From: a virus
Taxonomy: Duplodnaviria > Caudoviricetes
Length of the DNA stretch: 64,000 nt
IMG/VR virus record: IMGVR_UViG_2934470325_000001
Location: 32,001 to 96,000 of that record
Direction: 5' to 3' (one strand)
In this document: positions 820 through 40,997 of the stretch, one piece after another
Position numbering within the stretch: position 1 is the first letter of the stretch
Layout of the letters: each line of letters starts with the position of its first letter
Notes under the pieces: model-generated
What the model saw: the letters and a program-made list of their open reading frames with translations, nothing else
Database searches by the model: none
Told to the model about the DNA's origin: nothing
Translations under genes and position numbers: made by a program

Positions 820-1287
820 ATGGCGCGAAACATCAAGAGCACCATCCGCCCCAAGGGCGTCAAAGCCCTCGCCTGGACGTCGTTCGGCACCGCCTTCGTC
901 GGCGGCCCCCTCGTCGCCGGCATGTTCGTCGGTGACGCCATCAACACCGTCCTGGAGGCCATCCCGTGGGGGTGGATCCCCCCGGCGGTGCTGTTCCTCC
1001 TCGCCGTCATCTTCGTTCGGGACCTCGTCGTGGACTGGGAGCCGAACCGGCAGGCCATCTGGAGTCTCCTGCTCGCCCCGTCCGTCGCCCGCGCTGTCCC
1101 CGGCGAGCTGGGCGACCGCATCGACGAGTGGACCAGCGCAGCCCTCAACGTGATCTCCGGGCCGCTGCGGGAGTGGCTGGGCACCGGCTCCCCGATCGCC
1201 CTCGCCGTCGCCGTCGGCGGTGCGGCGATCCTGTTGGCGCAGCGGTCCATCAAGGCCAGCGGCGGCCAGCACGCGATGGGCATGTGA
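820..1287 (+). CDS. Multi-pass membrane protein
   Basis: AAGGAGA RBS, ATG 820; about four hydrophobic helices. Confidence 0.8.
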   Translation: MARNIKSTIRPKGVKALAWTSFGTAFVGGPLVAGMFVGDAINTVLEAIPWGWIPPAVLFLLAVIFVRDLVVDWEPNRQAIWSLLLAPSVARAVPGELGDRIDEWTSAALNVISGPLREWLGTGSPIALAVAVGGAAILLAQRSIKASGGQHAMGM

Positions 1288-1288
1288 C

Positions 1289-2677
1289 GTGGAACCGATC
1301 ACCGTCATGATCCTCGCCGCGCTCATCACGAAGGTGGTGACGACGCACCGGGAGGACATGGAGTACGCCCGCCACGGCCAAGAGTCACCCCGCTACAAGA
1401 TGAAGCTGGCGAAGCTCGCAGCCGCCCAGAAGGCAGGCGGGGCCGGCGGTAGGGCACCGGTCAAGCCCGGGGCGTCCGGCTACATGCAGGAGTTGTGGCG
1501 TGACGCGTGGGACGACCTCACCGAGCACCGCCGCCGGCAGAGGGAAACCCGCAACGCCGGCAAAAGGCAGCAGCATGAGGAGTCGCTGCGGGACTGGTCG
1601 AAGCGCAGCCTCAACACCCGCCCCGACGGACGACCGGTCGACGACATGATCGACGTGGCCGGCGTGCGACCCGGCAAGGCCGAGAAGGGCGGGCGGATCC
1701 CGCAGCCCCCTACACCCGAACCGTCGGCGGACGTCGTCCACGACGCCGAATGGCCGCCACCCGCCGACCCCGACGACGCGGGCGGGTTTCGCCGCGACAA
1801 GCGGCTCGTCGCCTGCGGCCACTGCGGCACCTCCGTCTCCGCCGGCTACCGGCGCACCCGCACCGTCAACGGCGACAGGCGGAAGGTGTGCGCCCCCTGC
1901 GCCGAACGCATCGACCACGGCGACCTGACCGTGCCAGCCGGCATCACGCAGCACAGCGACATCGGCTGCTCCGTGTGCGGGCAGCACCGCGACGACCCGT
2001 GGTGCGAGCATCGGAAGGCCGCCTACCAGCGGTTGCAGGAAGCCGTGCAAGGCGCGCTCAACGCCGAGAAGAACCCGCCCGCCGACGACGCCCCCGACAA
2101 GTGCAACCGCTGCCCCTACGGGCGGATCACCGGCACCCGACCGTGGCCCGGATCCGACGGGTCCAGCCCCGACGCCGACCAACTGTGCAACCGCTGCGGG
2201 TGGCTGTCCTCCCACATGTCCGGCAAGACGTGGGACCAGTGGAGCGCCGAACTGAACCAGACCGCCAACCCCTCACCGTGGCCTCCGCCGCAGCCCGACC
2301 CGAAACCCGCCGACCCCATCGACGTCGACCCCACCCCCAACAACGTGATTCCCCTGTTCCCCAACGCGAAGGAGACCGTCATGACCGCCAACGCTGAGGC
2401 CACCGGCCTTCCCACCGCCATCGCCTACGCCGAGGCCGCCGCGCAGGCCCACGACGCGTTCGCCACCGCAGGCAGTGAGGGCTACACCAGTGCCCTCGCC
2501 AGCTTCGAGGTCGGCTCGGAAGGGCTCGACTCCGCCCGCGCGGCGCAGGAGGCGTCCACCAACGCCGCCGCCGCGTGGCGGGTCCACCACGAGACGCTCG
2601 TCAAGCAGATGGCCGGGCGAGAGTTCTACCAGTCCAACCCGGACGCCGGCAACAAGGCGTTCCTGTCCGGCGAGTAA
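1289..2677 (+). CDS. Membrane-anchored protein with several CxxC Zn-finger motifs and an Ala-rich helical C-terminal domain
   Basis: GTG 1289 just after upstream stop; N-terminal hydrophobic stretch; CGHC/CAPC, CSVC, CNRC/CNRC; in-frame ATG 2381 with its own AAGGAGA RBS. Confidence 0.75.
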   Translation: MEPITVMILAALITKVVTTHREDMEYARHGQESPRYKMKLAKLAAAQKAGGAGGRAPVKPGASGYMQELWRDAWDDLTEHRRRQRETRNAGKRQQHEESLRDWSKRSLNTRPDGRPVDDMIDVAGVRPGKAEKGGRIPQPPTPEPSADVVHDAEWPPPADPDDAGGFRRDKRLVACGHCGTSVSAGYRRTRTVNGDRRKVCAPCAERIDHGDLTVPAGITQHSDIGCSVCGQHRDDPWCEHRKAAYQRLQEAVQGALNAEKNPPADDAPDKCNRCPYGRITGTRPWPGSDGSSPDADQLCNRCGWLSSHMSGKTWDQWSAELNQTANPSPWPPPQPDPKPADPIDVDPTPNNVIPLFPNAKETVMTANAEATGLPTAIAYAEAAAQAHDAFATAGSEGYTSALASFEVGSEGLDSARAAQEASTNAAAAWRVHHETLVKQMAGREFYQSNPDAGNKAFLSGE

Positions 2678-2760
2678 CCCCGGCTCCCGCCGTGCAGCGC
2701 AGGCCCTCCCGTGGTCTGCGCCGTGCGGTGGAAGCCGGGACACCCCGAAGGAGAACCAAC

Positions 2761-4773
2761 ATGATCGACGTTGCTGAGGTGTCCGCAGACGGCACCACCA
2801 CCGCCAGTAAGCCGGCCACCCCGCCGCCGGCACGCGACCTCACCCTGAAAGGCATACGCCGGGCCCGCCGCACCCCCCACGTCGCGGTCGGCCTCCTCGT
2901 CGTCTCCGCCGCCGCCACCAGCACCCTCGCCCACTACACCGGCGAGGAAGCGCAGGTAGCCGCCTGGACGGCCGTGGTCGCATTCGTCGCCGCCGTCGTG
3001 GTCGCCACGCAAGCCCGCCGCCGTGTCTTCGACAAGAAGGCCGTCCGCCGCGCCTACGCGTTCTGCGCGGTCGCTGTCGTGTGGTTGACCACCGTCACCG
3101 CGACCAGCCTCACCCTCGGCGCAGTCGGCATCCTCACCGCCGTCGGCTACAGCCTCGCCGTGCACTGGTGGCGCACCAACCCCCTACCCATCACCGGTGC
3201 CAGCACGACGTCCAGCAGCCTGTACGCCGACCTGTGGGCCGAGAACGTCGGATGCTCCGACGGTGCCCTACCCGGCACCACCCTCACCGACCCGCATGGC
3301 ATCAAAGCCGGCGTGCGGTACGCGCTGCGTCTGCGCCCCGGCAAGCAAACCCTCGACATGGTGATGGCGGCAGTCGGGAAGATTCGGGGCGGTCTGTTCC
3401 TGCGCCGCGACCAGGAACTCATCGTGGAACCCCACCCCACCCTCCCCGAACCGCACCTGCTCCTCACCGTCGTCACCCGCTCCCCGATCCGCGAATCCGT
3501 CGTCCACCCCGGCGCGTCCGCGTTCGATCCGGCCACCGGCCGTGTCGCCCTCGGCCCGTTCGCCGACGGTGAAGGCGTCGCCACATGGAAGGCGTACTCC
3601 GACAACCGGCTGTGGGGTGGTTTCATCCAGGGCGGCACCGGGTCCGGCAAGTCCCGCATGGTCGAATCCATCGCCCTCGCCCTCGCGGCGTCCACCACCC
3701 ACCCCACCGTCATCCTGTACGGCGACGGTCAGGGCGGCGCATCGTCGCCGCTGCTCATGAACCACGCCGACGTGAAAGCCCGCACCCACGACCAGATCCT
3801 CGCCGTCCTCGAAGGGCTGCACCTGGTGGTGCTGCTGCGGCAGGACGAAAACGCGGTCAACGGCGCGGAAGGGTTCACGCCCACCGAAGACCGGCCCGGC
3901 CTGCTGTTCGTCCTCGACGAATGCCACAAGCCGCTGTCGAAGCTGGAGAACCCCGCCAACTGGGAACGCATCCAATACCTGATCGCCACGATCGCCCGGG
4001 AAGGCGGCAAGGTCGGTGTGGCGGCGCTGCTGGCCTCCCAGCAGACCACCCTCGACGTGTTCGGCGGGGCGGGCAGCCCCAACGCTGAGGCGATCCGCAC
4101 GAACCTCCTCGCCGGCAACGGCGTCATGCTCCGCTCCAAAGACCCCAACGCCAAGACAATCTTCGGTGTGGAAGTCAACCCGAAGAAGTTCCCGCCGCTC
4201 GCCGGCTACGGCTTCCTCGTCGACTCCGACCCGTCCGCACGGTCCGCACCGTTTCGGGGCTACTACGTGACCGACCGGATCCGCGACGAGTGGCCCGGCC
4301 AGATCGTGTGGCGGTCCCTCGACCCGGGTGCCGCTGCCGCGTGGGGCCGCGACTACGAGCGCCGCGACGAGATCGCCGCCGAAGCGTTGGAGGCTGTCCG
4401 CCGCCGGCTCGCCGCACGCCGCGCAGGCCAGCACGCCACCCCCGCCCCCACCAAGCCGGCCAACGGCGATGTCGGCACCGGCCCCGTCGCCCCCTCGACT
4501 GGCCGGTTTCCATCGTGGAAGACGATGCTGGCCGCCGCCCAGCAGCAGGCCCAGCAAACGCAGAAGGCGAAGCCGCTGCACGACGGGCATCGGCGGGTCC
4601 TCGCCGCCATCCACGACGGGCACACCACCCCGAAAACCATCGTCGCCGCCACCGACTATTCGGAGCGGCAGGTGTACAACCTGCTCAACGACCTTGCCGA
4701 CAACCACGGCCTAATCCGTAAGCAGGGCCACGGACAGTATGTGCTCACCGACGGACGGCAGGTGGCTGCCTGA
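2761..4773 (+). CDS. traB: TraB-like FtsK/SpoIIIE-family DNA translocase
   Basis: GAAGGAGA RBS, ATG 2761; about four N-terminal TM helices; Walker A GGTGSGKS; Walker B LLFVLDECH; ASQ motif; C-terminal winged helix (TTPKTIVAATDYSERQVYNLLNDL...GQY). Confidence 0.8.
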   Translation: MIDVAEVSADGTTTASKPATPPPARDLTLKGIRRARRTPHVAVGLLVVSAAATSTLAHYTGEEAQVAAWTAVVAFVAAVVVATQARRRVFDKKAVRRAYAFCAVAVVWLTTVTATSLTLGAVGILTAVGYSLAVHWWRTNPLPITGASTTSSSLYADLWAENVGCSDGALPGTTLTDPHGIKAGVRYALRLRPGKQTLDMVMAAVGKIRGGLFLRRDQELIVEPHPTLPEPHLLLTVVTRSPIRESVVHPGASAFDPATGRVALGPFADGEGVATWKAYSDNRLWGGFIQGGTGSGKSRMVESIALALAASTTHPTVILYGDGQGGASSPLLMNHADVKARTHDQILAVLEGLHLVVLLRQDENAVNGAEGFTPTEDRPGLLFVLDECHKPLSKLENPANWERIQYLIATIAREGGKVGVAALLASQQTTLDVFGGAGSPNAEAIRTNLLAGNGVMLRSKDPNAKTIFGVEVNPKKFPPLAGYGFLVDSDPSARSAPFRGYYVTDRIRDEWPGQIVWRSLDPGAAAAWGRDYERRDEIAAEALEAVRRRLAARRAGQHATPAPTKPANGDVGTGPVAPSTGRFPSWKTMLAAAQQQAQQTQKAKPLHDGHRRVLAAIHDGHTTPKTIVAATDYSERQVYNLLNDLADNHGLIRKQGHGQYVLTDGRQVAA

Positions 4774-5498
4774 TGTCGACCCCGGTCCGCCGGATCCCAG
4801 GCCCGCGCCGCCCTACCAACCTCGCGCGACCAGGCCGCATCTACGTGATCCTCACCCGGCCCGTCGACCAGCAGGGTCAGGTGCTGCCCGGCCCGCCGAA
4901 GGTCGGCTACATCGGGCAGACCCGACAGCAGGTGTGGCAGCGCGCCGACCAGCACCTCGCCGAACAGCCATTCGGGGACCTGATCGTGGACGTGCTGCTA
5001 CTCGACCAAGGCACCTGGACGGACGCCCAGTTGGACGACCGGGAGGGGATGTGGATCCGCGCCGGTGTGTCCGTGGGTGGCAGGCCAGTCCAGCGGCCCC
5101 GCTACAACTATCTGTGCAACCTGGAGAACCCGGATCGGATCGAGATCTTCCGCGCCGTGCAGCACCGGCAGCACCGGGAGCCGGGCTGGCAGCCGCCGCC
5201 GAAGGGCGCGCGGATCCCCACCCAACGCAGGGCCGCGTCCACGGTCCGGCCGCGCCGGGTGTCGCCGCTGTCCCGCTGGTGGGGCCGCCACCGTTGGCAG
5301 GTGGTGTTGTGGGCGTCCGTGTGGGTGCTCCTGTTCGCGGGCGCGTGGTGGGCTGGCGCTGACACATGGTCCGGGTGGGCGGAGACCCGCAACGCTGCCG
5401 TAGCCGCCACCGTGGCCACCGCAGCCATCGGGTGGCGCAGGTGGAAGCTAGCCGGGACGAGACGCCGCCGGTCGAAGCGCCGGGGGCGTCGCCGGTGA
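4773..5498 (+). CDS. GIY-YIG-like nuclease domain with two C-terminal TM helices
   Basis: GRIYVI...VGYIGQT..QRADQH, E-x-x-W-I and P-R-Y-N elements of the GIY-YIG fold; hydrophobic C-terminus with Arg-rich tail; TGATG coupling to traB. Confidence 0.7.
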   Translation: MSTPVRRIPGPRRPTNLARPGRIYVILTRPVDQQGQVLPGPPKVGYIGQTRQQVWQRADQHLAEQPFGDLIVDVLLLDQGTWTDAQLDDREGMWIRAGVSVGGRPVQRPRYNYLCNLENPDRIEIFRAVQHRQHREPGWQPPPKGARIPTQRRAASTVRPRRVSPLSRWWGRHRWQVVLWASVWVLLFAGAWWAGADTWSGWAETRNAAVAATVATAAIGWRRWKLAGTRRRRSKRRGRRR

Positions 5499-5737
5499 AA
5501 TGGTGCTGGGAGGCATACGACAGGGCCGGTGTCCGCCGCATCGCCGGCACCCTCACCGACCCGTGGGCCGACACCCCGAGCGGGGCAGCCGAGCTGGGCA
5601 TGGCGCACCTGATGGTGAAGGTCCGGCCGGAGTTTCGGCGGCTGCGCGGGTGGCGTGTGCGCGCGTGGGATGACCTGGTGGGGGAGGCGTGGGTGGACGC
5701 CGATGAATGGTTGCACGCTCACACCGCAGGCAGGTAG
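5495..5737 (+). CDS. Small Trp-rich hypothetical protein
   Basis: GTGA overlap with upstream stop; VKWCWEAYDRAG... Confidence 0.65.
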   Translation: MKWCWEAYDRAGVRRIAGTLTDPWADTPSGAAELGMAHLMVKVRPEFRRLRGWRVRAWDDLVGEAWVDADEWLHAHTAGR

Positions 5738-5797: not shown

Positions 5798-6997
5798 TCA
5801 GCCTGCCCGTGCGGCCAACTCCCGCACCATGCCGCGCCCACGCTCCACGACCGGCACCGCATCCACCACCCGCGCTGTCGTGAACCGCACCAGCTCGTTG
5901 TGGTGGGCCGCCGGCAGTGCGTCGAGCACGTCCCCGGCGTACTTGATCCCGCCCGACACATCCCCGCCCCGCACCATCCCGGCAGCCCTGTGCAACTGCA
6001 CCTGCGACCGCAACCGAATCTGCCGCTCCGGATACAACGCCATCGCCCGATCCTGCGCCGCCTCAGCCTCCCGCAGCCGGCCCGCGTGCGTGAACACCCA
6101 CGAGCGGGTGTGCTCCGTCCGCACCTCAGACCACCCCCACAACGATGTGCCGTCCGGGGTGCCCTCCGGCAACCGGTCAGCCATGCCCGTCAGCCGGTTG
6201 ACCGCCCCCACCGCCTCGGCGTGCCGGCCCGCCAGCGACAGCGCTTGTGCCTGCCCGGCCAGCAGTTGACAGCCGGCCACCGACGGGGCACCCACCGGCG
6301 GCAGACCATCCACCGACGCCGGCAAAGCTGCGACGGTCCGCCCGTCATAGCACCCGTTGACGGTGTCCCACGCCCTGACCCACCGCTGCACACCAGCATC
6401 CGCAGACAGGTCAGCCATGTTCCGCGCAGATGCCCACCATCTGCGGGCCGACACCTGCTCACCCGCAGACACCATCTCCAGAGCGACCAGCGTCGACAGC
6501 AGCCCGGCCACACCCAGCAGCCGCTGACGGTGCTGCCCGTCCGTGGCCGCGATCTGATGCCCGAGCACGTCCAGGTCAGCGCGCAGGCTCGCCATCAGCC
6601 TGTCGGCCGGCAGCCGGTAGTAGTCCACGCCGTATCCGGCGACGATGCTCGTCCACTCGTCGATGTCCGCCGCCGCGCCCAGGCCGTGCCGTAGCGCCTC
6701 CCACCCCGTCAGCCGGTCCACTGCCGGGACCGCCGCCAGCGCCCCCATGGCTTGCAAAACTCTGCGTCTGCGCATGTCTGTGTCGCCTGCCCGTCTACTC
6801 GCGTACGCCCCTGTCAGCGCCCCACCCGCCTCAAGCGCATTGTCGTATGCGGCAACGACTTCTGTCGATGCGGGCCGGTTGCCTCGCTCGACCTGACCGA
6901 GGTACCCGAAGTCGTAGCCGATCCGCTCGCCGAACTTCCGCAACGACCAGCCCGCCTGCGTGCGATGCCGCCTCAGTATGTGTCCGAAATCGTCCAT
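5798..6997 (-). CDS. XRE-family HTH regulator with helical (TPR-like) C-terminal domain
   Basis: FGHILRRHRTQAGWSLRKFGERIGYDFGYLGQVERGNR is an XRE HTH; GGGGGA RBS before ATG 6997. Confidence 0.85.
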   Translation of the reverse strand: MDDFGHILRRHRTQAGWSLRKFGERIGYDFGYLGQVERGNRPASTEVVAAYDNALEAGGALTGAYASRRAGDTDMRRRRVLQAMGALAAVPAVDRLTGWEALRHGLGAAADIDEWTSIVAGYGVDYYRLPADRLMASLRADLDVLGHQIAATDGQHRQRLLGVAGLLSTLVALEMVSAGEQVSARRWWASARNMADLSADAGVQRWVRAWDTVNGCYDGRTVAALPASVDGLPPVGAPSVAGCQLLAGQAQALSLAGRHAEAVGAVNRLTGMADRLPEGTPDGTSLWGWSEVRTEHTRSWVFTHAGRLREAEAAQDRAMALYPERQIRLRSQVQLHRAAGMVRGGDVSGGIKYAGDVLDALPAAHHNELVRFTTARVVDAVPVVERGRGMVRELAARAG

Positions 6998-7274
6998 GCT
7001 GTCCCCCCAGCGTGTGGGCAGTTCCGTGGGCCCACTGCTCACCCCTGCCGCACCCCGATTCTATCGATCAGGCTGGACGTGTCGGGACAAGCCCCCGACG
7101 CGTAGAGGCGCGGTAGACCGCAGGCCAGAGGCCGTTGTCTGCCGCTGCCGACGCATGGTGTGGTGGCCGACCGGGACCCCCAGCCCCCAAGGCCACCACA
7201 CCCCAGAATGTCGGGGGTGACCGGTGGGATACGGACAGTCAGGCAACACGCCCCGCGACCGTTTCGAGGACCCG

Positions 7275-7391: not shown

Positions 7392-7600
7392 GCATCAGCA
7401 AGCCCGACCCAGCAGTCATCGCCGGCTGGTGGGAGAGGTATCACGCCCATGCGCTACGCGATGGGCGCTGCCCCGTCTGCGACGTGCCGCGACGCTGCCG
7501 AGAGTGGGCCAACGCTCGCGGCGACCTGATCGCCCACGGGCTGCTCGCGGCCGACGGCGGACCCGTCGAGACGGGCGATGGGGAAGCGCCCCGCACCTGA
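7388..7600 (+). CDS. Small His/Cys metal-binding protein divergent from the XRE regulator
   Basis: H-x-H..GRCPVC..C motif; followed by a hairpin. Confidence 0.65.
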   Translation: MSISKPDPAVIAGWWERYHAHALRDGRCPVCDVPRRCREWANARGDLIAHGLLAADGGPVETGDGEAPRT

Positions 7601-7612
7601 CCTCGGGCATGC

Positions 7613-7652
7613 GAAAACGCCCCCGCCGGCCGAAGCCATGGCGGGGGCGTTC
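7613..7652. terminator. Hairpin terminator between convergent genes
   Basis: AACGCCCCCGCC...GGCGGGGGCGTT inverted repeat. Confidence 0.75.
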
Positions 7653-7678
7653 CTGTGTGGGGTCAGGAATGCGCGTTC

Positions 7679-7951
7679 CTAGTCGCTCGGTTCCGTCGCC
7701 TTGGTCTTGGTGCCGCCGGTGATCCCTCGGGCGATCTGGGAGGCGCGGGCCGGGTGCAGTTGGAGTAGTTCGCCGACCTGGTCCCAGGTGCGGCCCTCTT
7801 TGAGGGTGGTGACGGCTTCTGCGCGCGCGGCCCGCAGGTCGCTTTGGAGGGTGGGGATCGCGGCGAGGGCTGCGCCGAGGGCGATGGCGCGTTCTGCGGG
7901 GTCGTCGGGGAGGCCGTTGTGGAGGGCGGCGATGGCGGGCGGGAGTTTCAT
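7679..7951 (-). CDS. Small HTH DNA-binding protein (probable repressor of the adjacent divergent promoter)
   Basis: GRTWDQVGELLQLHPARASQIARG HTH; TAACCT -10 six nt upstream of ATG (leaderless). Confidence 0.8.
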   Translation of the reverse strand: MKLPPAIAALHNGLPDDPAERAIALGAALAAIPTLQSDLRAARAEAVTTLKEGRTWDQVGELLQLHPARASQIARGITGGTKTKATEPSD

Positions 7952-7957
7952 GGGCTC

Positions 7958-8027
7958 AGGTTAGTGGGTGCCCCTCGACTTCTCTAGTGGGCACCCCCTT
8001 GCGCCGTTAGTGGGTACCCACTATGCT
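7958..8027. promoter_or_regulatory. Divergent promoters with three operator repeats at 23-bp period
   Basis: TAGTGGGTGCCCCT (7962), TAGTGGGCACCCCCT (7985), perfect palindrome TAGTGGGTACCCACTA (8008-8023); + strand TTGCGC(7999)-17bp-TATGCT(8022). Confidence 0.85.
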
Positions 8028-8062
8028 TTAGGTGTAGGCAGGAACGAGCAGGGGAGACGGAC

Positions 8063-8362
8063 ATGGCGAACACGGTGACCATCGAGCGGCTGACCATCGA
8101 CGACATCACCAGCCGGATCCGCCGCGCCTACGGGGTGCACACCACCCAGACCTACCGGGGTGCGTGGATGAGCCTGAGCAACCTGGCCGAGCGCGTCGAC
8201 CTCACCTTCAACGAGATCAAGGCCGGCGTCCTCCACCTCGCCCAGACCGACCGCCAGTGCGTGATCGCCCCCGAGAGCAACCAGCGCACCCTCACCGGCC
8301 TGGACCGCGAGCTGGCGGTGCGGTACGGCGGCCAGGACAACCACCTCATCTGCTGGAGCTAG
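8063..8362 (+). CDS. Hypothetical protein, possible winged-helix fold
   Basis: GGGGAGA RBS; WMSLSNLAERVDLTFNEIKAGVLHL helix pattern; strong GC3 bias. Confidence 0.8.
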   Translation: MANTVTIERLTIDDITSRIRRAYGVHTTQTYRGAWMSLSNLAERVDLTFNEIKAGVLHLAQTDRQCVIAPESNQRTLTGLDRELAVRYGGQDNHLICWS

Positions 8363-8433
8363 CCGCCCCGGGGTCGGCCACCCGGCCGACCCCCGCCCTA
8401 CCCTCTGACCAGCCCACGACACCGGAGGACACC

Positions 8434-8757
8434 ATGACCAACACTGCCGCGCAGACCGACGCCCTCTACCGCGCCGCCATCGCCACCGACGCCGCCATCG
8501 CCGGCCCGCACTGCACCATCGACGTGTACGAGCTGGAGGTCACCGGCCACAGCGACGACGGCCCGGTCTACGAGCTGAGCGACCGCACCGCCATGGACAC
8601 GGCCGCCACCAGCGTGCGCACCGACGACCCCGACCGGGCCGCCGCCGCCCAGGACGAGGCCGACGAGATCCTGCGGGCCGCAGGCTGGGTCCGGGTGGAG
8701 GACTGGGACGCCGGCGACGGCGGCCTGTACGCCGACGTGGAGCCGGCCAACGGCTGA
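8434..8757 (+). CDS. Very acidic small hypothetical protein
   Basis: GGAGGA RBS, ATG 8434; 23 D/E versus 6 R and no K in 107 aa. Confidence 0.8.
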   Translation: MTNTAAQTDALYRAAIATDAAIAGPHCTIDVYELEVTGHSDDGPVYELSDRTAMDTAATSVRTDDPDRAAAAQDEADEILRAAGWVRVEDWDAGDGGLYADVEPANG

Positions 8758-8769
8758 CGCCGGACGCAG

Positions 8770-8805
8770 AGCAGCCCCGCTCCCACGAGGGGAGCGGGGC
8801 TGCTT
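8770..8805 (+). terminator. Intrinsic terminator
   Basis: AGCAGCCCCGCTCCC / GGGAGCGGGGCTGCT followed by T. Confidence 0.85.
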
Positions 8806-8831
8806 GCTGTGCGGCGATCGTTCACTAAGCC

Positions 8832-8872
8832 GTGTAGACACATCTACACATCACGTGTAGACTCATCTACAT
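8832..8872 (+). promoter_or_regulatory. Leaderless promoter overlapped by two palindromic operators
   Basis: GTGTAGACACATCTACAC (8832-8849) and GTGTAGACTCATCTACAT (8855-8872); -35 TAGACA(8835)-17bp--10 TAGACT(8858); ATG 7 nt downstream. Confidence 0.85.
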
Positions 8873-9209
8873 GAGCGAGCGGCAGATCACCCGGGACATC
8901 GCCCGATACAGCGACACCGACGAGCCGATGCACCGGTGGGCCCTCACCATCGACGGCGACACCGTCTCCGAGCTGTGGGTGGCTATCGAGACCGGCGAGA
9001 TCATGCAGGTCGAAACCCCCGCCGAGCACCAGGGCAACGGCTACGCCACCGCCCTCTACCGGCAGGCCGCCGCCGAGATCACCATCTACCACGCCCCCGA
9101 AGCCCACCGCACCTACGAGGGTGACCGCTTCGCCCGTTCCGTCGGCGGCGACTCCCTGCCCTGCCAGCACGGCTGCTGCGACAACGACAACGACGACGAG
9201 GAGTTCTGA
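8871..9209 (+). CDS. Small GNAT-family acetyltransferase with Cys/acidic tail
   Basis: Acetyl-CoA motif A: VETPAEHQGNGYATALY; ends CQHGCCDNDNDDEEF. Confidence 0.75.
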   Translation: MSERQITRDIARYSDTDEPMHRWALTIDGDTVSELWVAIETGEIMQVETPAEHQGNGYATALYRQAAAEITIYHAPEAHRTYEGDRFARSVGGDSLPCQHGCCDNDNDDEEF

Positions 9210-9568
9210 TGGCCACCGACGACCTGATGGCCTGGGCCGGCCCCGCCTGGGCCGAACTGACCGACGAGCAGCGCGACCAGCTCGCTGCCGCCGCCGCCGA
9301 CATTACCCAGCGGTACCCCGACCCCGACGACCAGGGCGACCGCGACGCCGCCTTGTCGGCCACCGTGCAGTACCTGCTCGGCGAGACCACCGCCGACGAC
9401 ACTGCCCGCGCCCTGCTCGCCGCCCGGCAGGCCGCCCGCGCCGCCTACGTGGCCGCCGTGCAGCACGCCGTGATGCTCCACCGAGTCGGCGGCAGCCAGA
9501 AGAAGGCCGCCGCCCTCGCCTGCGGCATCGACCGGATGACCCTCCTCAAAGCCCTGGGCGAGCGGTGA
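9209..9568 (+). CDS. Helical protein with C-terminal HTH (probable autoregulator)
   Basis: SQKKAAALACGIDRMTLLKALG HTH; TGATG coupling. Confidence 0.75.
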   Translation: MATDDLMAWAGPAWAELTDEQRDQLAAAAADITQRYPDPDDQGDRDAALSATVQYLLGETTADDTARALLAARQAARAAYVAAVQHAVMLHRVGGSQKKAAALACGIDRMTLLKALGER

Positions 9569-10341
9569 GTCAGGACGAGTGGCTGCGCCGCCTACGCCGC
9601 GCCGGAACGGCAGTCACCGCAGCCAGCGCGGCCAGCGACGAAGCGTTCGCGCACCTCGACGCCACGGTCCGCGCTGCACGCCAGGCAGGGCGTACCGTGG
9701 CGCACCTGGTGACCGTGACGGGCCTGAGCAAAGCTCGAATCGACGAGGCCATCGCGGCCGGCGGCCCCGAGGACGACCTGCCAAGCAGCGACACCGCCCT
9801 GCGGATCGCCGCATACACCGCCGCCGCCGCAGACGCCAACTACCTTGCCTGCCGTGGCCGCCGAGACGCGCTCATGCTCCAAGCTGGCATGGAAGGGCTG
9901 ACGTACTCGGCGATCGCCGCTGCGGCGGGCACCTCCCGCCGGTACGAGTGGCAGCTACGCACCGGCCGCCTCGACATCGACAGGCGGTCGCCACGGCAGT
10001 CCGTGTTCGAAGGGGCCGGCATGGAGGCATATCGGGCCACCGAAAACGCGCGGCTGCGATCCCGCAGGCAAGCGGTAGAAGCCGGGCTGCCGGTGCAGAT
10101 CACGCACGGACTGTACGGCTACCGCCACGGATGCCGGTGCGACGTGTGCGTGGAGGCGCGGCGCGGCGTCCAGGCGGGCGACGTGGCCGTCAGCCACGGG
10201 CTCGACGGCTACCGCCACGGCTGCCGATGTGAGGTGTGCACGGCCAAGAACGCCAGCTACCACCGTGACTGGCGTCGCCGCCGGTCAAGCACAGTGCGCG
10301 TACTCCCGCCGCAGAGAGGGGAACCGCGATGGGAGGGGTAG
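9565..10341 (+). CDS. Double-HTH protein with two HG-x-x-GYRHGCRC-x-x-C Zn-binding repeats
   Basis: GTG 9565 overlapping upstream stop; GRTVAHLVTVTGLSKARI and GLTYSAIAAAAGTSRR; HGLYGYRHGCRCDVC and HGLDGYRHGCRCEVC. Confidence 0.7.
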   Translation: MSQDEWLRRLRRAGTAVTAASAASDEAFAHLDATVRAARQAGRTVAHLVTVTGLSKARIDEAIAAGGPEDDLPSSDTALRIAAYTAAAADANYLACRGRRDALMLQAGMEGLTYSAIAAAAGTSRRYEWQLRTGRLDIDRRSPRQSVFEGAGMEAYRATENARLRSRRQAVEAGLPVQITHGLYGYRHGCRCDVCVEARRGVQAGDVAVSHGLDGYRHGCRCEVCTAKNASYHRDWRRRRSSTVRVLPPQRGEPRWEG

Positions 10342-10778
10342 CCACCCTAGAGCATGGGCAGCAGGAGTACGCCTGGATGCTCAACGCGATCCGGGCCGAC
10401 GCGTGGCTGGTGGGGCGCATGTGGGTGGACGCCGAATCCACCCCTGACGAGCTGGACCAGCCCGGCACGGTGTGGTCGGTCGTCCTGGTCGACGGTGCCC
10501 CGGCGGCGTGGTGTGCGGCCACCCCCGACGCGGGCGCACTCCGGGCGCACTCCAACTACGAGCACCCCCGGCATCGGGGGCGCGGCCTGTACGCGGCGGC
10601 GTACGCGCAGAGGCACCGCGACGTGATCCGCACGTCAGGGGTGCCAGCGGTGACGTACCTCTTCGCGCAGCCGATCCCGTTGCACGAGGCGGACGGCTGG
10701 CACCGCACCAGTGCCCAGGGGCCGGGTGAGGTGGACGGCCACTGGTGGTGGGAACTGCGCCGCATCCCCACGGATTGA
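10329..10778 (+). CDS. Second GNAT-family acetyltransferase
   Basis: NYEHPRHRGRGLYAAAY motif A; LHEADGW motif B-like. Confidence 0.7.
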   Translation: MGGVATLEHGQQEYAWMLNAIRADAWLVGRMWVDAESTPDELDQPGTVWSVVLVDGAPAAWCAATPDAGALRAHSNYEHPRHRGRGLYAAAYAQRHRDVIRTSGVPAVTYLFAQPIPLHEADGWHRTSAQGPGEVDGHWWWELRRIPTD

Positions 10779-10880
10779 CAGCCGGGAACACGCTTTCCCG
10801 TCCGCCTGGTGTTCGGCCCAAGGTGGGCCGCTGTCGCCTCTCGGACAGCCCCACCCCGACCCGGCCGCTACCGTGCCCGG

Positions 10881-11339
10881 ATGATCCGCCGCACCCTCCC
10901 CGCCGCCCTCGCCCTCACCGCCGCCCTCACCGGCTGCGGCAGCAACCCCGAACCAGCCGCCGCACCGCCACCCACAAAAAGCGCAGCACCCCTCCCGCTC
11001 CTCATCCGAGGCACCTTCAGCCTGGAACTCCCCAAGTTCATCTGGTCCGAGGAAACGCACACCTGCGCAGGCATGGGCGGATACGACGACATTGCAGGCG
11101 GAACCCAAGTCCTCGTCACCGACCCGGCAGGAGTGAACCTCGCCGTCGGGGCACTCGACGACGGCCAGCCCGTCATCGACCCCGACGACGACAGCCGCGC
11201 CACCTCCTGCCTCTTCGAATTCGAAGTCCCGAATGTGCCCAGCGGTAAGGGCATCTACGGGATAGAGGTGGGCCGTCGGGGCAAGGTCCAATACAAGGAG
11301 GCCGACCTGGGGGAGAAGCTCAGCCTCAGCCTCGGCTGA
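10881..11339 (+). CDS. Lipoprotein (moron; superinfection-exclusion-like position)
   Basis: Signal peptide MIRRTLPAALALTAALTG|C with lipobox LTGC; TACCGT -10 six nt upstream of ATG. Confidence 0.8.
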   Translation: MIRRTLPAALALTAALTGCGSNPEPAAAPPPTKSAAPLPLLIRGTFSLELPKFIWSEETHTCAGMGGYDDIAGGTQVLVTDPAGVNLAVGALDDGQPVIDPDDDSRATSCLFEFEVPNVPSGKGIYGIEVGRRGKVQYKEADLGEKLSLSLG

Positions 11340-11488
11340 TCCCGTCACGGCAGGCATGCGAAAGGGGGCCGCCCCACCCCCCGCCGGCTGCCCGCGTGGC
11401 GGCGAGGCAGCGACAGACAGGGATGGGGCGGCCCTGGGCAACACCGGCGCTGGGGAGCTAGACCGGGGCCCGTCCGTGATGCTGAGGA

Positions 11489-11989
11489 TCAGGCAGCCGC
11501 GTCGGGGCGCTGGTCTGCCGGCGAGTGGCAAAACGGGAACGGCTCGACCAACGGAACAGTGCGCACGGTCCGCTCCACGCCGTAGAAGCCGCTGCGGGCG
11601 ATGACGGAGTTACCGTCGTCGTCGCACACGACCACCTCGATGGTGAGCTGCCCGTCGTCGATCTCGAAGCCCGCACCGGTGGGAACATCGTGCGGGTCGA
11701 GGCCGTTCGCGCGGACCCACTCGCACAGCATCTCTTGCCCCGGACCGCTGAGGGCCGGAAGACGCCCCGCCGTGACCACGCCCGAGTGATCCATGCGGGC
11801 GATCGAGGATTGCAGGAAGTCGCGCTCCGTCCGGTTACGCACCGCCTCCGCCGCGCCAGTCCACGCCTGCTGGATGGTGTCGCCGAGGTCATCCCACACC
11901 GGCATCGGGTCGCCCCGATAGTTCTTGAACCCGACCGCCTCGCCGTACGCCTGATAGGCGACCTGGGCCAGCTCAACGCTGTCGGTCAC
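11489..11989 (-). CDS. Two-domain hypothetical phage protein at end of the late operon
   Basis: GTG 11989 adjacent to holin stop; AQVAYQAYGEAVGFKNYRGDPMPVWDDL; C-half resembles 42032..42340. Confidence 0.7.
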   Translation of the reverse strand: MTDSVELAQVAYQAYGEAVGFKNYRGDPMPVWDDLGDTIQQAWTGAAEAVRNRTERDFLQSSIARMDHSGVVTAGRLPALSGPGQEMLCEWVRANGLDPHDVPTGAGFEIDDGQLTIEVVVCDDDGNSVIARSGFYGVERTVRTVPLVEPFPFCHSPADQRPDAAA

Positions 11990-13121: not shown

Positions 13122-13531
13122 GCTGGTTGTCCTTTGCTGGTGACCGGCTCTGGCCAGCCCGCGATCAACCACACACACATCGCGAACGCACCCCACACCG
13201 CCGCCGACACCCAGCCATCCGGCACGTTGCCGAGGACCCAGCCGGACAGGTACAGGGAGAACCAGAGGACTTTGATTCCGATGGCCGCGCCGAACGCCAA
13301 CCTGTCGCAGTCCCGCACCGACCCCAGGGTGCAGGCGACAGCGATGGCGATCCACAGAGCAGCCCACGGCCACAACGGCATGATGCCGTGCAGCCAGGCG
13401 TAAAACGGCTGGGCGTCGGGCTGGGCGGTGGCGAGACGCAGCCCGTAGGCGACGTCGAGGCCGGCGAACACCAGTAGGGCTATGCCTCGCCGGCCGACCC
13501 GGTGCTGCAACCGTGCGACCGCCCTACCCAT
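13100..13531 (-). CDS. Four-TM membrane protein (lysis cassette)
   Basis: Four hydrophobic helices; TGATG-coupled to endolysin. Confidence 0.8.
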   Translation of the reverse strand: MGRAVARLQHRVGRRGIALLVFAGLDVAYGLRLATAQPDAQPFYAWLHGIMPLWPWAALWIAIAVACTLGSVRDCDRLAFGAAIGIKVLWFSLYLSGWVLGNVPDGWVSAAVWGAFAMCVWLIAGWPEPVTSKGQPAWTPPTD

Positions 13532-14472
13532 CAGGACATGCTGCCGTCGGAGACGCGGCCGGTGAACGTGAACGTCGCCGGCAGTTCCAGACGTCCCGCC
13601 GGCCCCTGCGGACCGGGGTCACCCTTCGGCCCCTGCGGACCCGCCGGACCCTGAGGTCCCTGCGGGCCGGCAGGACCGGGCTGGCCAGCACCGCCGTACC
13701 GCTTCGCCATGCACATCTGGAGTTGCACGTAGCCCCACGCATCGAACTTGTCGCCGGAGGTGGCGGTGCTGCCGACCGACTTGCGCATCCGCAGCACCGC
13801 CGCCGACGTGCCCGACCCGTAGACGCCATCCTCATCGCCGGCCTTGAAACCGAGATAGTTGAGGGCGACCTGGAGGGCCTGCACGTGCATGCCCTTGTCG
13901 CCGACCTGGCAGAACATCAGGAGTCCCCCTGTCGAAGTCGTCAACCCGATGTACGCCAGGTAGCGGCGGAACACCGGGGTCAGATCAGTGCCGGCCTTCG
14001 TGACATCCCGGAACACGCTGGCGTGCGTGTGGGACAGGTGCGAGGTGTCGCCGCTCGACCGACGCTTAAGCCGATCCCAGCGTTTGACCGTCACCCCGTC
14101 GGGCGAGTAGATGACCTCGCGGATCCACAAGGTGTCCGGAGCATTCGCCTCACACTCACCGACCAGCCACACGCTGAACGTGCGCAAGTTGTGCGTCCGC
14201 CCGTTGACGGTGACGCTGAACCAGCCGACGTCCAGGGCCGACGCGTAGTCGCTCAGCCCGGCCTTGTCCCGCGACGACTCGACCACCGAGTAGTCGCTGG
14301 TCACCACCCGGTCCTCGCCGCAGTGGTAGCCGCCCCGGTGGGCGCTGTCGGCGACGATACCGACCTCGTTCGGTTCGAGGTCCGCCGAGCGGGCCACACC
14401 CGGATCCATGTCCAGATGCGTGAGGAGCAGGGAACGGACCTGCATCAGGTTGGATGGTGCGCGGGTCACCAC
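13531..14472 (-). CDS. Endolysin: Zn-peptidase-like catalytic domain, peptidoglycan-binding domain, collagen-like tail
   Basis: GGYH...SALD...HLSHTHAS His/Asp pattern; GDKGMHVQALQVAL...DGVYGSGTSAAV PG-binding signature; position directly after tail genes. Confidence 0.8.
   Translation of the reverse strand: MVTRAPSNLMQVRSLLLTHLDMDPGVARSADLEPNEVGIVADSAHRGGYHCGEDRVVTSDYSVVESSRDKAGLSDYASALDVGWFSVTVNGRTHNLRTFSVWLVGECEANAPDTLWIREVIYSPDGVTVKRWDRLKRRSSGDTSHLSHTHASVFRDVTKAGTDLTPVFRRYLAYIGLTTSTGGLLMFCQVGDKGMHVQALQVALNYLGFKAGDEDGVYGSGTSAAVLRMRKSVGSTATSGDKFDAWGYVQLQMCMAKRYGGAGQPGPAGPQGPQGPAGPQGPKGDPGPQGPAGRLELPATFTFTGRVSDGSMS
13594..13686 (-). repeat. Collagen-like (G-X-Y)x10 coding repeat in endolysin
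   Basis: GQPGPAGPQGPQGPAGPQGPKGDPGPQGPAG. Confidence 0.9.
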
Positions 14473-23347: not shown

Positions 23348-23817
23348 TATCGCCCCTTCCGTCTGCGTCGGGGCGGCTTAGCGACACGCACAACCGTGTG
23401 GATCATGTAGGGGGCCTGGTCAGGGTCGTTCTTCGACCACTTCTCTTCGCTGCGCACCAACGCCTTGCAGCTAAAACACTCGGTGGGGTCCTCGGCCACG
23501 TACTGGCTGGTGGCGTCAGGGTTGTCCGGGTCGTTGTCCGGGTCCGTGCACTCGGCGAGGGGCTGCCCGCACTTGCGACACAACGTGCCCTCGTACAGAT
23601 CGAGGGCGAGCATCCACGCCCGCTCCCGGCTATCCCACTCCACCTCGCGGGACGTCACCCACCGAGAAGGACGGCCCTGCTCATCCCACGCCGTGACCTG
23701 TGTAGCCTCGCGGGGCTCCCACCCGTCCAGCCGTTTCAAGCTGACACCGAGACTCCGGGCGACGCTCAGCTTCCGTCGGAGTTCCGGCGATCCGGCGAGC
23801 TGGTCAGCGAGAAAGGG
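23347..23817 (-). CDS. Tail assembly chaperone, -1 frameshift extension (gpT-like part)
   Basis: Frame of ORF 23347..23739 stays open up to the slippery site; no RBS-led ATG of its own. Confidence 0.75.
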   Translation of the reverse strand, partial: PFLADQLAGSPELRRKLSVARSLGVSLKRLDGWEPREATQVTAWDEQGRPSRWVTSREVEWDSRERAWMLALDLYEGTLCRKCGQPLAECTDPDNDPDNPDATSQYVAEDPTECFSCKALVRSEEKWSKNDPDQAPYMIHTVVRVAKPPRRRRKGR

Positions 23818-40764: not shown

Positions 40765-40997
40765 GGCGTCGAACCGCTGCGAGGTGCGCCTTGGGCCACC
40801 TGTCGGGCTCGGTTCCGCCGGTAGGCGTGATGGCCGAACAGGGCGGTAGCGACCGTGTAGGTGAGGACGATTGCCCACGTCGGGGGATGCACGATCCATG
40901 CCCACAGGGCCAGTAGGGTTGCCATGGCCAGGTACAGCACAGTGAGTGCCGCGATTCTTGGGCTGTTGTCTCGCAGCCAGAGGCGGGTGTTGGTCAC
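40761..40997 (-). CDS. Small two-TM protein
   Basis: GTGA overlap; two hydrophobic helices. Confidence 0.6.
   Translation of the reverse strand: MTNTRLWLRDNSPRIAALTVLYLAMATLLALWAWIVHPPTWAIVLTYTVATALFGHHAYRRNRARQVAQGAPRSGSTP

Follow-up and report, generated by a model that had tools for sequence, protein, structure and literature searches.

The four-gene operon analyzed here (g1 to g4; Table 1) appears, on balance, to be an autorepressed accessory ('moron') operon of the acr-aca-like type, with exchangeable cargo that most likely blunts host immunity. In the window, that is, the whole analyzed stretch of 64,000 nucleotides, the operon is located at the end of an actinobacterial siphovirus prophage, opposite the integrase and convergent with the lysis cassette, and a position adjoining the lysis cassette at the provirus end is also typical of most of the relatives. 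The genes are tightly coupled, with overlaps of 1, 4 and 13 nt between g1 and g2, g2 and g3, and g3 and g4, respectively. An acr-aca-like architecture had been proposed in the first-pass annotation, and comparison of the related sequences points in the same direction: the operator appears to follow the g2-type helix-turn-helix (HTH) protein, to change with the partner, and to head swappable cargo that includes a solo Cas8e. The constant unit over approximately 60 related loci consists of the twin operator and the C-terminal HTH of g2. A DNA search of a phage collection with positions 7600-11400 as the query returned a single, irrelevant match of 150 bp.

Table 1. The operon and adjacent features, with positions in the window.
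Feature	Position	Strand	Description
g1	8871..9209	+	112-aa truncated GNAT-fold protein; Cys-rich acidic tail; exchangeable cargo
g2	9209..9568	+	119 aa; C-terminal helix-turn-helix; proposed Aca-like autorepressor
g3	9565..10341	+	258 aa, GTG start; DNA-binding-type protein; variable cargo or co-regulator
g4	10329..10778	+	149 aa; complete GNAT fold; variable cargo
GC-rich hairpin	8770..8805	+	3' of the upstream gene (8434-8757); likely terminator
Operator 1	8833..8848	.	TGTAGAC-AC-ATCTACA; left half holds the -35
Operator 2	8856..8871	.	TGTAGAC-TC-ATCTACA; left half holds the -10; ends on the A of the g1 ATG
Putative lipoprotein gene	10881..11339	+	Signal peptide and LTGC lipobox

The two palindromes in front of g1, GTGTAGA-CACA-TCTACAC (8832-8849) and GTGTAGA-CTCA-TCTACA (8855-8871), share the core TGTAGA-N4-TCTACA and are set with a period of 23 bp, the second one running into the start codon at 8871. 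The core pattern does not recur anywhere in the full 108,622-bp record and, with up to two mismatches allowed, the window holds only these four strand-matches (0.23 expected), a number that was reached in none of 100 shuffles. The only promoter-like site detected by a consensus scan in the region 7400-11600 combines a -35 element TAGACA (8835-8840) and a -10 element TAGACT (8858-8863) separated by a 17-nt spacer. Coordinates, promoter scan and shuffles all agree with the original description of twin palindromes 23 bp apart that cover the -35, the -10 and the start codon. The -10 element ends 8 nt from the ATG, with no Shine-Dalgarno sequence in between, so that, judging from the promoter layout, a leaderless g1-g4 mRNA is plausible. 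The possibility that g2 is the master immunity repressor of the prophage was rejected because, across the entire record, the operator is confined to this promoter. A search of the literature with the half-site sequence retrieved only primers and unrelated text.

The comparison of loci assigns these promoter inverted repeats to the g2-type HTH protein. Twin palindromes, with up to 4 of 14 mismatches accepted, are present in 23 of the 27 loci that encode a g2-type HTH, and the spacing is 23 bp in 20 of these, 24 bp in two and 22 bp in one. Conversely, a scan of DNA for the operator pair that was blind to the encoded proteins yielded 41 viral stretches, 37 of which have a match to the g2 HMM immediately downstream; three of the remaining four share one contig, with a single g2 gene and three twin-operator promoters. 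The consensus derived for the operator is TGTAGAC-N2-GTCTACA, 16 bp long, with the centres 23 bp apart, and the ATG falls on the last operator base in 17 of the 41 stretches, regardless of the identity of the first gene. When the HTH partner changes, the operator, as far as can be judged from these sequences, changes as well: in one locus (L020), g1 is located beside a different, 187-aa HTH protein, and a different long palindrome is present; in another (L023), g1 is fused to yet another HTH and the repeats are CTATAG; and gp30 of Gordonia phage Finkle is associated with GTGTACAC/GTGTATAC repeats. The protein that binds the operator is likely to be g2 rather than g3.

The description of the second gene as encoding a protein with a C-terminal HTH is supported by a match (2.8e-11) to phrog_2311, which is annotated 'HTH DNA binding protein'; g2 falls into no Pfam or NCBIfam family. 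Sequence and profile searches of the PDB gave nothing significant for any of the four proteins, and the ESM Atlas contributed only unnamed actinobacterial or viral clusters and, for g2 and the C-terminus of g3, weak HTH leads. Short relatives of g2 (63-70 aa) correspond to the C-terminal half only. The N-terminal domain of g2 is equally conserved beside other first genes. There are also loci in which g2-type genes stand alone (L040, L045, L048 and L049); this would be unexpected for a pure repressor of cargo, and a further role of g2 may exist. The g2 regulator and its operator appear to be undescribed in the literature that was searched.

The first gene had been described as a minimal, 112-aa GNAT, and the predicted structure supports this fold in a truncated form, with the curated sequence threshold missed. 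The model (pLDDT 89) has strands 1 to 4, followed by helix 3, strand 5 (short) and helix 4, and lacks helices 1 and 2 as well as strands 6 and 7 of the complete GNAT topology. All the listed PDB fold matches are GNATs, with a best Foldseek E-value of 4.7e-3 and, in VIA, Z-scores up to 9.8 with an rmsd of 3.3 over 97 of the 112 residues; PanZ (4cry and 4crz; Z 8.9) is among the closest of the listed structures. By fold, g1 also resembles viral NAT_SF proteins of 97-127 aa from BFVD. Motif A is represented by Q54-G-N-G57-Y-A59 (Q/R-x-x-G-x-G/A), with helix 3 beginning at residue 58; across 31 sequences, G57 and A59 do not vary, and conservation of Q54 is at least 90%. The match to Pfam Acetyltransf_1 (15.9 bits, E 0.016) is below the cut-off of 20.7; some relatives of g1 carry PF00583. 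The family additionally has a conserved HAP-x2-HR-x2-EG segment of its own and a Cys-rich tail. The listed fold matches of g1, of which there are 50 in the VIA comparison, include neither AcrVA5 nor GNAT toxins, an absence that excludes nothing, and in a profile search of the PDB a single GNAT was retrieved, at E 0.41, and no AcrVA5. The g1 domain is also found inside a 723-aa SWIM-like/NUDIX multidomain protein that resembles the conflict-associated polyvalent proteins, which include GNAT domains among their components (Iyer et al. 2017, PMC5512222).

The fourth gene likewise encodes a predicted GNAT, as originally suggested; sequence evidence is weak here, with no Pfam or NCBIfam match, and the assignment comes from the complete fold in the predicted structure. 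The model (pLDDT 97.6) has its strands and helices in canonical order and gives at least 500 PDB fold matches at E ≤ 0.001 (best 1e-7), of which all those listed are GNATs. The g4 family conserves R83-x-x-G-x-Y88, and not the final G/A of motif A. It includes 67 representative relatives and, in L056, lies next to lysis cassettes as well.

The product of the third gene had been annotated as a double-HTH protein with a duplicated motif. Its N-terminal HTH (phrog_686, 4e-5) and the duplication, HG..GYRHGCRC..C at ~10108-10152 and ~10195-10239, are present, whereas the second HTH is represented only by a sub-threshold match to TetR_N (E 0.0085). The duplicated motifs possibly bind metal. Two stretches each of g3 also match phrog_28611 (2.6e-9) and phrog_8936 (4.1e-8). 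Among the compared loci, g3 is restricted to the window, L003, L004/L017 and L034; L014, L024, L098 and Finkle (gp29) have distant analogues. A 90-aa HTH protein encoded upstream (7679-7951) was considered as a relative of g3 and rejected, there being no similarity between the two.

The genes that surround the g2 platform are exchanged readily. The first gene can be g1, an unrelated gene for a 118-aa protein or a member of several other families, or can be absent, and the tail of the operon can consist of g3 and g4, of nothing, of a gene for an HNH protein or of a solo Cse1/Cas8e gene. At least eight further cargo families are found beneath the same operators, and the operator scan of 41 stretches recovered about ten unrelated ones. 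One such case is L034, which has the same operators and a leaderless-type ATG, a g2 that is 83% identical to that of the window, and both g3 and g4, and in which the first gene encodes a 118-aa protein unrelated to g1 and 50% identical to gp31 of Finkle. In the g2 tree, L034 nests within the clade of the window (support 100/99), and the state of the first gene shifts at least five times on well-supported branches.

Some of the exchanged cargo links the platform to CRISPR-Cas type I. Two loci, L011 (Pfam, 1.8e-52) and the prophage locus L102, encode a solo, full-length Cse1/Cas8e directly 3' of g2, and in L029 a Cse1-like gene (1.6e-47) is located two genes upstream of g1-g2. In L081, a domain similar to the C-terminal part of Cas8c is fused to the HTH of the platform; this domain is detected by Pfam (2.5e-4) and TIGR01863 (1.2e-3), under both curated cut-offs, and by BLASTP against a Streptomyces Cas8c (7e-5). 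Only these 4 of roughly 60 loci are linked to Cas proteins, and L011 lies in a chromosomal island and not clearly in a phage, with a type I-C cas cluster at a distance of 6 kb. Sixteen other Cse1-like loci that were checked (15 in the family and one in genome G002) have no g1, g2 or operators nearby, so that L011, L102 and L029 are the only loci with a Cse1 link. With regard to the hosts, a canonical Cse1 is encoded in G001, G003, G005, G252 and G273, and not in G004, whereas G002 has the operon copy and, besides it, just a partial one. Type I-E markers are widespread among these hosts, Cse1 being present in 77 of the 301 genomes of the family; the occurrence of Cse1 in the host genomes that carry the module is, in this small and phylogenetically uncontrolled sample, suggestive only. 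None of the ~60 loci yielded a validated Acr or any other anti-defence gene.

The strongest competing explanation, although an unlikely one, is that the operon carries lysogenic-conversion or prophage-encoded defence cargo, i.e., genes that benefit the lysogen, for example through superinfection exclusion or GNAT modification of proteins of the host or of incoming phages. The moron-like site at the prophage end would fit this explanation, as would the operon's own promoter and the upstream hairpin. The latter has a folding energy of -46.5 kcal/mol (z -7.1), equalled in none of 200 shuffles, is also found in L004 and L005, and likely shields the operon from upstream transcription; it has no T-tract and was therefore missed by the terminator listing of the motif scan. 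The downstream lipoprotein gene could be considered conversion cargo as well: no convincing terminator follows g4 (z -1.05 for the fold between the two genes), so that this gene possibly is co-transcribed with the operon, and it is not conserved in L004. Furthermore, the module is rare and patchy, with strong g1 matches in 3 of the 301 genomes of the family, and the L011 island carries, along with the type I-C cas cluster, genes for Ku and a zeta-toxin-domain protein. However, PADLOC matches none of the g1-g4 proteins, nor the alternative 118-aa first gene product, a result that counts against the anti-defence reading as well, and the solo Cas8e and the Cas8c-like fusion are easier to reconcile with interference with Cascade than with defence. 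In addition, small, quickly exchanged cargo controlled by an HTH autorepressor is a hallmark of acr loci.

A toxin-antitoxin-like module, the other possibility raised in the first-pass annotation, is disfavoured by the same exchange of partners. Under this scenario, which seems improbable, the operon would be a type II toxin-antitoxin or abortive infection system in which g1 is a GNAT toxin, acetylating, e.g., aminoacyl-tRNA, and g2 is the antitoxin and autorepressor. Two small genes that overlap by 1 nt behind palindromic operators are what could be expected of such a system, and g1 and g2 indeed co-occur in 24 of the 27 g1 loci (the window counted, and three viral loci being duplicates of genome loci) and in 11 of the 12 genome loci; one genome even holds two copies of the module, and in L023/P0289 an HTH, not a g2-like one, is fused to g1. 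The co-occurrence, the translational coupling and this fusion are also compatible with a protein-protein partnership. A dedicated, co-inherited pair is nevertheless difficult to reconcile with a g2 that, at 83% identity, is paired with an unrelated first gene and with the recurrent swaps or losses of that gene on the g2 tree. In addition, g2-type HTH proteins occur alone or without the N-terminal half, and g1 is found alone beside an endolysin gene in an oral caudovirus and paired with a non-HTH, 154-aa protein in L008. Moreover, the known GNAT toxins are larger, at ~160-175 aa, and are preceded by a gene for an RHH antitoxin, whereas g1 lacks two helices and two strands of the GNAT fold. Finally, that g1 is a metabolic sensor, namely a non-catalytic, acetyl-CoA-binding, PanZ-like GNAT that tunes the DNA binding of g2 to host physiology, is very improbable: the structural proximity of PanZ, the conserved CoA pyrophosphate-loop motif, the translational coupling of g1 and g2 and the existence of a g1-HTH fusion would all be compatible with it, but the platform dispenses with g1, which is replaced or absent, g1 is found with no HTH whatever, and the N-terminal domain of g2 is no less conserved with other first genes.

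The acr-aca-like reading can be put into perspective by comparison with characterized systems. In acr-aca operons, such as those controlled by Aca1, which acts at the acrIF1 promoter of Pseudomonas phage JBD30, or by Aca2, an HTH gene and small variable genes are likewise combined in one operon on prophages, two inverted repeats overlie promoter elements, with negative autoregulation, which is our inference for the present operon, and the cargo varies around a conserved regulator. The operon described here differs in that g2 is the second gene and not the last one, and belongs to no Pfam or NCBIfam family; in that the -35 and the -10 are part of the operator half-sites, with an apparently leaderless mRNA; and in that only Cas homologs, and no validated Acr, are linked to it, in hosts that belong to Actinomycetota. 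AcrIIA1-type proteins are bifunctional Acrs with an HTH autorepressor domain, to which the effector-HTH fusions on the g2 platform (g1-HTH in L023 and Cas8c-like-HTH in L081) are similar; these fusions are, however, putative effectors, and in the window effector and HTH are separate proteins. AcrVA5 is reportedly a small GNAT anti-CRISPR protein that acetylates Cas12a. Like AcrVA5, g1 is a very small GNAT-fold protein encoded on a mobile element and is possibly an enzymatic inhibitor, but it has no sequence match to AcrVA5 in the PDB profile search, and, to our knowledge, these hosts do not typically carry type V systems. With the GNAT/RHH type II toxin-antitoxin systems TacAT, AtaRT and KacAT (toxin of ~160-175 aa, upstream RHH protein of DUF1778), the operon shares a GNAT-fold protein next to a (proposed) DNA-binding autoregulator and palindromes at the promoter; the gene order is reversed, with the partner downstream, the partner is an HTH instead of an RHH protein, g1 is short and truncated, and partners are freely exchanged. 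The similarity of g1 to viral NAT_SF and polyvalent proteins, both by fold and through the domain in the 723-aa NUDIX protein, is offset by the segment and the tail that are specific for the g1 family. A parallel to the solo Cas genes comes from Katz et al. (preprint 10.1101/2023.06.24.545427), where orphan viral cas genes are reported to sit in anti-defence loci, AcrIB4, a homolog of the Cas8b C-terminus, to act as an Acr, and AcrIIC9 is described as an autoregulator. By comparison with AcrIB4, as presented there, the operons of the relatives similarly carry solo Cse1/Cas8e or a Cas8c C-terminal-like domain; the differences are that the Cas8e is full-length, with a putative role, and that no Cas homolog is encoded in the window.

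Taken as an acr-aca-like accessory operon, the system could function as follows. A near-consensus promoter, with the -35 and the -10 written into the left halves of the two 16-bp palindromes, would give rise to a leaderless g1-g2-g3-g4 mRNA. Dimers of g2 would bind both palindromes through the C-terminal HTH and occlude RNA polymerase, keeping the operon at a low, self-limited level of expression. The exchangeable cargo, represented here by the truncated GNAT g1, the DNA-binding g3 with its putative Zn motif and the complete GNAT g4, would act on host proteins and blunt immunity, with CRISPR-Cas type I as the best lead; acetyl transfer by g1 or g4 would be part of this proposal. A more specific version, in which g2 and TGTAGAC-N2-GTCTACA define an undescribed Aca-type family, and g1 (perhaps also g4) acetylates a component of type I Cascade or Cas3 beside viral solo Cas8e and Cas8c C-terminal decoys encoded on this platform, is a speculative and rather doubtful extension.

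Among the papers listed in searches of the anti-CRISPR literature (GNAT/Aca; Streptomyces/prophage), 22 of 78 matches, there was no description of an actinobacterial Acr-Aca system or of this module. Enzymatic Acrs are rare, so that a 112-aa GNAT in that role would be of mechanistic as well as practical interest. With half-sites that double as -35 and -10 elements and a start codon that begins on the final base of the operator, this promoter design amounts to a compact part for gene regulation in high-GC hosts. Should g2 be an Aca-type autorepressor, the operator pair would provide a protein-independent handle on accessory, probably anti-defence, operons of actinobacterial phages, and, if the more specific version holds as well, a means of searching Streptomyces and Micromonospora for anti-defence genes.

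Judged from their sequences, genes g1 to g4 (112, 119, 258 and 149 aa) appear, with somewhat better than even probability, to form an acr-aca-type accessory operon (anti-CRISPR genes with an HTH autorepressor, Aca) that represses itself. In such an operon, g2 would bind the twin operators and repress its own transcription, the GNAT-fold proteins would be the effector cargo, and this cargo would most likely act in anti-defense, with type I CRISPR-Cas as the leading candidate target. The palindromes and genes described in the first-pass annotation are all present in the sequence (Table). The -35 and -10 hexamers each lie inside the left half of a palindrome, and the A of the g1 ATG (8871) is the last base of the second one. 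Because this ATG follows the -10 hexamer by 8 nt with no ribosome-binding sequence in between, the predicted g1 mRNA fits a leaderless transcript. No further palindrome copies occur elsewhere in the whole 108,622-bp record; with up to two mismatches allowed, the two operators are still the sole matches in the window (0.23 expected), and four palindrome strand-matches were reached in none of 100 shuffles. The gene overlaps of 1, 4 and 13 nt (g1/g2, g2/g3 and g3/g4) indicate that g1 to g4 are a single, translationally coupled operon. There is no convincing terminator 3' of g4, and the lipoprotein gene that follows may be co-transcribed.

Table. Features of the operon and of the surrounding prophage (window positions unless stated otherwise)
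Feature	Position	Strand	Remarks
Hairpin	~8770-8805		before promoter; strong, -46.5 kcal/mol, z -7.1
Operator 1	8832-8849		palindrome, GTGTAGA-CACA-TCTACAC
Promoter	8835-8863		TAGACA-17-TAGACT; only promoter-like site in 7400-11600
Operator 2	8855-8871		palindrome, GTGTAGA-CTCA-TCTACA; 23 bp from operator 1
g1	8871-9209
g2	9209-9568
g3	9565-10341		GTG start
g4	10329-10778
Lipoprotein gene	10881-11339		after g4
Small membrane proteins	ending near 11.5 kb	-	last of minus-strand block
Lysin	13531-14472	-	PG_binding_1 domain, collagen-like GPQ/GPA repeat; near end of minus-strand block
Terminase, portal, capsid, tail tube, tape measure, Dit, Gp37-like tail protein			Pfam; after replication genes
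Replication genes	from ~64 kb	-	Pfam; the four below
DnaB helicase	48062-49426	-	Pfam
Beta clamp (DNA polymerase III)	54293-55432	-	Pfam
dCTP deaminase-like	55429-56154	-	Pfam
WhiB-domain protein	57033-57623	-	Pfam
Serine integrase	record 107,180-107,650		far end of record

The window is bases 32001-96000 of the record, a provirus from IMG/VR, and has a G+C content of 69%; homologs of its genes come chiefly from Micromonospora. Pfam annotation, which covered 79 of the 87 called genes (the eight at 7682-11336 were scanned separately), indicates a siphovirus. The operon (record 40.8-42.8 kb) is convergent with the lysis cassette on the opposite strand. No tyrosine integrase was found in the prophage; the serine integrase lies at the far end of the record, which places the operon at the opposite prophage end. 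Likewise, most of the related loci have the operon facing a lysis cassette or no more than a few kb from the end of a provirus. Among the alternatives to an anti-defense operon, conversion or defense cargo expressed from the prophage is the one that survives best, and it is rather unlikely. Elsewhere in the window, four co-directional genes (155, 462, 693 and 241 aa) beside an XRE/NsdA-type regulator occupy 820-5737 (+) and 5798-7042 (-). The four have no Pfam family; the 693-aa protein shows weak P-loop matches to PADLOC mad8 (3e-6) and HerA (7e-6), and the XRE gene keeps the same position in a relative locus (L004). This group may be a defense-like cluster at or just beyond the prophage end. 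Three DUF6221 paralogs (148, 139 and 141 aa) are found among five consecutive small early-region genes (40997-42762, -).

Relatives of g1 were found at 12 genome loci (Micromonospora, Streptomyces, Phytoactinopolyspora, Ornithinicoccus, Brevibacterium and a Vicinamibacterales MAG) and at 15 viral loci, three of which duplicate genome loci. The gene is rare, with strong matches in 3 of the 301 genomes of the family, one carrying two copies. In 11 of the 12 genome loci g2 follows g1, and clustering of the window with all 27 loci recovers g2 in 24 and g1 in 27 (g1 is uncalled in L028); g3 and g4 are limited to close relatives. Twin TGTAGAC-N2-GTCTACA-like palindromes, counted at up to 4 of 14 mismatches, lie just upstream of the operon in 23 of the 27 loci with a g2-type HTH, their centers 23 bp apart in 20 loci, 24 bp in two and 22 bp in one; in the remaining four (L009, L013, L014 and L029), the repeats are rearranged or unrecognized. 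Where g1 has another partner, palindromes of this type are missing or altered. The partner is a 187-aa HTH protein in L020, with a long GATACCCTAGGGTC inverted repeat, and a 154-aa acidic non-HTH protein in L008, with a different palindrome; in L023, a different HTH domain is joined to g1 in one protein, and the repeats are CTATAG. The distant version in Gordonia phage Finkle (gp31-gp30-gp29) has the repeats GTGTACAC/GTGTATAC.

As a protein-independent test, viral contigs were searched with nothing but the operator pair (22 specified bases), yielding 41 stretches on 39 contigs. A g2-HMM match (E<=1e-5) is immediately downstream in 37 of these; only 10 contain g1. Of the four stretches that lack a g2 match, three share one 54.5-kb contig, and the last has a short HTH gene. 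That contig (G306; loci L063, L064, L086 and L101) carries twin-operator promoters of different small-gene operons at 21601-21639, 41244-41282 and 44441-44479 and a single g2-type gene (23078-23455), suggesting that in some phages the g2-type regulator controls a small regulon. In 17 stretches out of 41, the first ORF, whichever gene it is, has its ATG on the final base of the operator, which supports the leaderless design. By these patterns, the operator can be assigned to g2, and autoregulation, taken alone, appears more secure than the reading as a whole.

As initially described, g2 is a C-terminal-HTH protein: it matches phrog_2311 ('HTH DNA binding protein'; 2.8e-11), and its alignment begins with a conserved N-terminal domain (RYPDPDDQ..RDAALSA..QYLLGE), continues through a long helix and closes with an HTH (..AGIDRM.LLKALGER). 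The family has no Pfam or NCBIfam model. Some loci encode short relatives of 63-70 aa that comprise only the C-terminal helix and HTH and match phrog_2311, phrog_7061 and, at or near cut-off, Pfam HTH_23. From these relatives, the operator-binding part of g2 probably localizes to the C-terminal helix and HTH. For g3, the proposed double HTH holds in part: the N-terminal HTH (phrog_686, 4e-5) and the duplicated HG..GYRHGCRC..C motif are there, and the second HTH is represented only by a weak TetR_N-like stretch. The two motifs match PHROGs that have no assigned function, as well as the N-terminal parts of phage HNH endonuclease families; metal binding by them is a guess.

The genes under these operators vary. 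A Micromonospora provirus (L034) has the same operators, a leaderless ATG, a g2 that is 83% identical, g3 and g4; its first gene encodes a 118-aa protein unrelated to g1 and 50% identical to Finkle gp31, a family also present in L039, L043 and L098. Other first genes encode a 133-aa protein, a 118-aa family, a 119-aa protein, a 120-aa protein (followed by DUF6283 and two more), an 86- and 81-aa pair, another 119-aa protein, and proteins of 68 and 100 aa, most of them without a family. The region 3' of g2 holds, depending on the locus, g3-g4, nothing, HNH-type proteins, Zn-motif proteins or Cse1, and four loci (L040, L045, L048 and L049) consist of operators, leader and g2 and nothing more. In a maximum-likelihood tree of 29 g2 sequences (same-contig duplicates were left out, as were L039 and L047, with uncertain gene calls), L034 falls within the clade of the window (support 100/99), and well-supported branches force at least five first-gene state changes, the alternative first gene arising three times. 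The operon cargo is thus exchangeable.

The predicted folds bear out the proposal that g1 is a minimal GNAT and g4 a second one, with sequence scores for g1 below threshold (E ~0.015; 15.9 bits, with the cut-off at 20.7). The g1 family is large and conserved (99 clusters of ~108-126 aa each in a word-based search). The AlphaFold model (31-sequence alignment; pLDDT 89) has four strands, a helix, a short strand and a helix, and all PDB matches listed are GNAT acetyltransferases (best Foldseek E 4.7e-3). VIA-align gives xEco2 (Z 9.8, rmsd 3.3 over 97 residues), GCN5, PanZ and RibT, and in BFVD the matches are 'NAT_SF' proteins of viruses, 97-127 aa long (best 3.2e-8). In the model, g1 is reduced to a GNAT core: strands 1-4, helix 3, strand 5 and helix 4 are present, and helices 1-2 and strands 6-7 are missing. 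The pyrophosphate-loop motif Q54-x-x-G57-x-A59 is retained; in the alignment, the HAP-x2-HR-x2-EG segment is invariant and the tail is acidic and rich in Cys. Family-profile searches gave no match for g4, which has 67 representative relatives and a predicted complete GNAT topology (pLDDT 97.6; at least 500 PDB matches at E<=0.001). In an oral caudovirus (Caudovirus D_HF5_3), a g1-like gene stands alone next to the endolysin; a palindrome of its own, CTTGTAT-N6-TATACAAG, and a TATAGT box precede it (L016:3430-3506), and an HTH gene is absent in cis. A 723-aa metagenome protein (P0291, 63.8-kb contig) has a g1-like domain flanked by a SWIM-like Cys/His segment on one side and a NUDIX domain on the other, reminiscent of GNAT-containing, conflict-associated polyvalent proteins (Iyer et al. 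2017; PMC5512222). The first-pass annotation had left the choice between an acetylation-based counter-defense and a toxin-antitoxin-like module. Cargo swaps and an operator that tracks g2 favor an acr-aca-like architecture; the swaps, the solo g2 and solo g1 loci and the truncated g1 fold all count against a toxin-antitoxin pair, which is improbable. That g1 is an acetyl-CoA-sensing, PanZ-like co-regulator is more doubtful still.

For the proposed anti-defense operon, the best lead to a target is type I CRISPR-Cas, given the genes found in 4 of roughly 60 loci, none of them in the window. In Streptomyces (L011), a full-length solo Cse1/Cas8e (Pfam 1.8e-52, TIGR02547 3.1e-29) starts 13 bp past g2, with no further type I-E genes after it; ~6 kb upstream of the g1-g2-Cse1 operon is a type I-C cas3-cas5-cas8c-cas7 cluster (L011:3947-6156, L058:4517-10807, G002 contig C42). 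This island also carries Ku and a large Zeta-toxin-domain gene. The order operators-g1-g2-Cse1 is found at the end of a Micromonosporaceae prophage, where the operon faces genes resembling those for holin and lysin (L102). A provirus (L029) carries a Cse1-like gene (1.6e-47) two genes ahead of g1-g2, in the vicinity of genes for PAPS reductase and DNA methylase. Finally, a 190-aa protein under the same operators (L081:1895-2464) joins an N-terminal Cas8c/Csd1 C-terminal-like domain to a g2-type HTH; three methods agree on this domain (Pfam 2.5e-4 and TIGR01863 1.2e-3, both sub-cut-off; BLASTP 7e-5 to Streptomyces Cas8c). At 16 other Cse1-like loci, neither g1 nor g2 is nearby. Genome G033 has three Cse1-like matches, all scoring identically: one close to each end of an 8.1-Mb contig and one close to the beginning of another (C1:4513-5817, C1:8135024-8136328, C2:6823-8127), possibly within terminal repeats; neither g1 and g2 nor the operators were found at the one copy examined. 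A preprint by Katz et al. (10.1101/2023.06.24.545427) describes orphan cas genes within putative anti-defense clusters at 358 IMG/VR loci, and a Cas8b C-terminal homolog shown to be an Acr; the text of the preprint does not mention Cas8e, Cse1, type I-E, Streptomyces or Aca, and its supplements could list such loci. Taken alone, the anti-defense part appears less secure than the whole reading.

The architecture common to this operon and to acr-aca operons is already known. The literature searched holds no description of operator half-sites doubling as -35 and -10 hexamers, of the leaderless geometry or of the actinobacterial cargo set.
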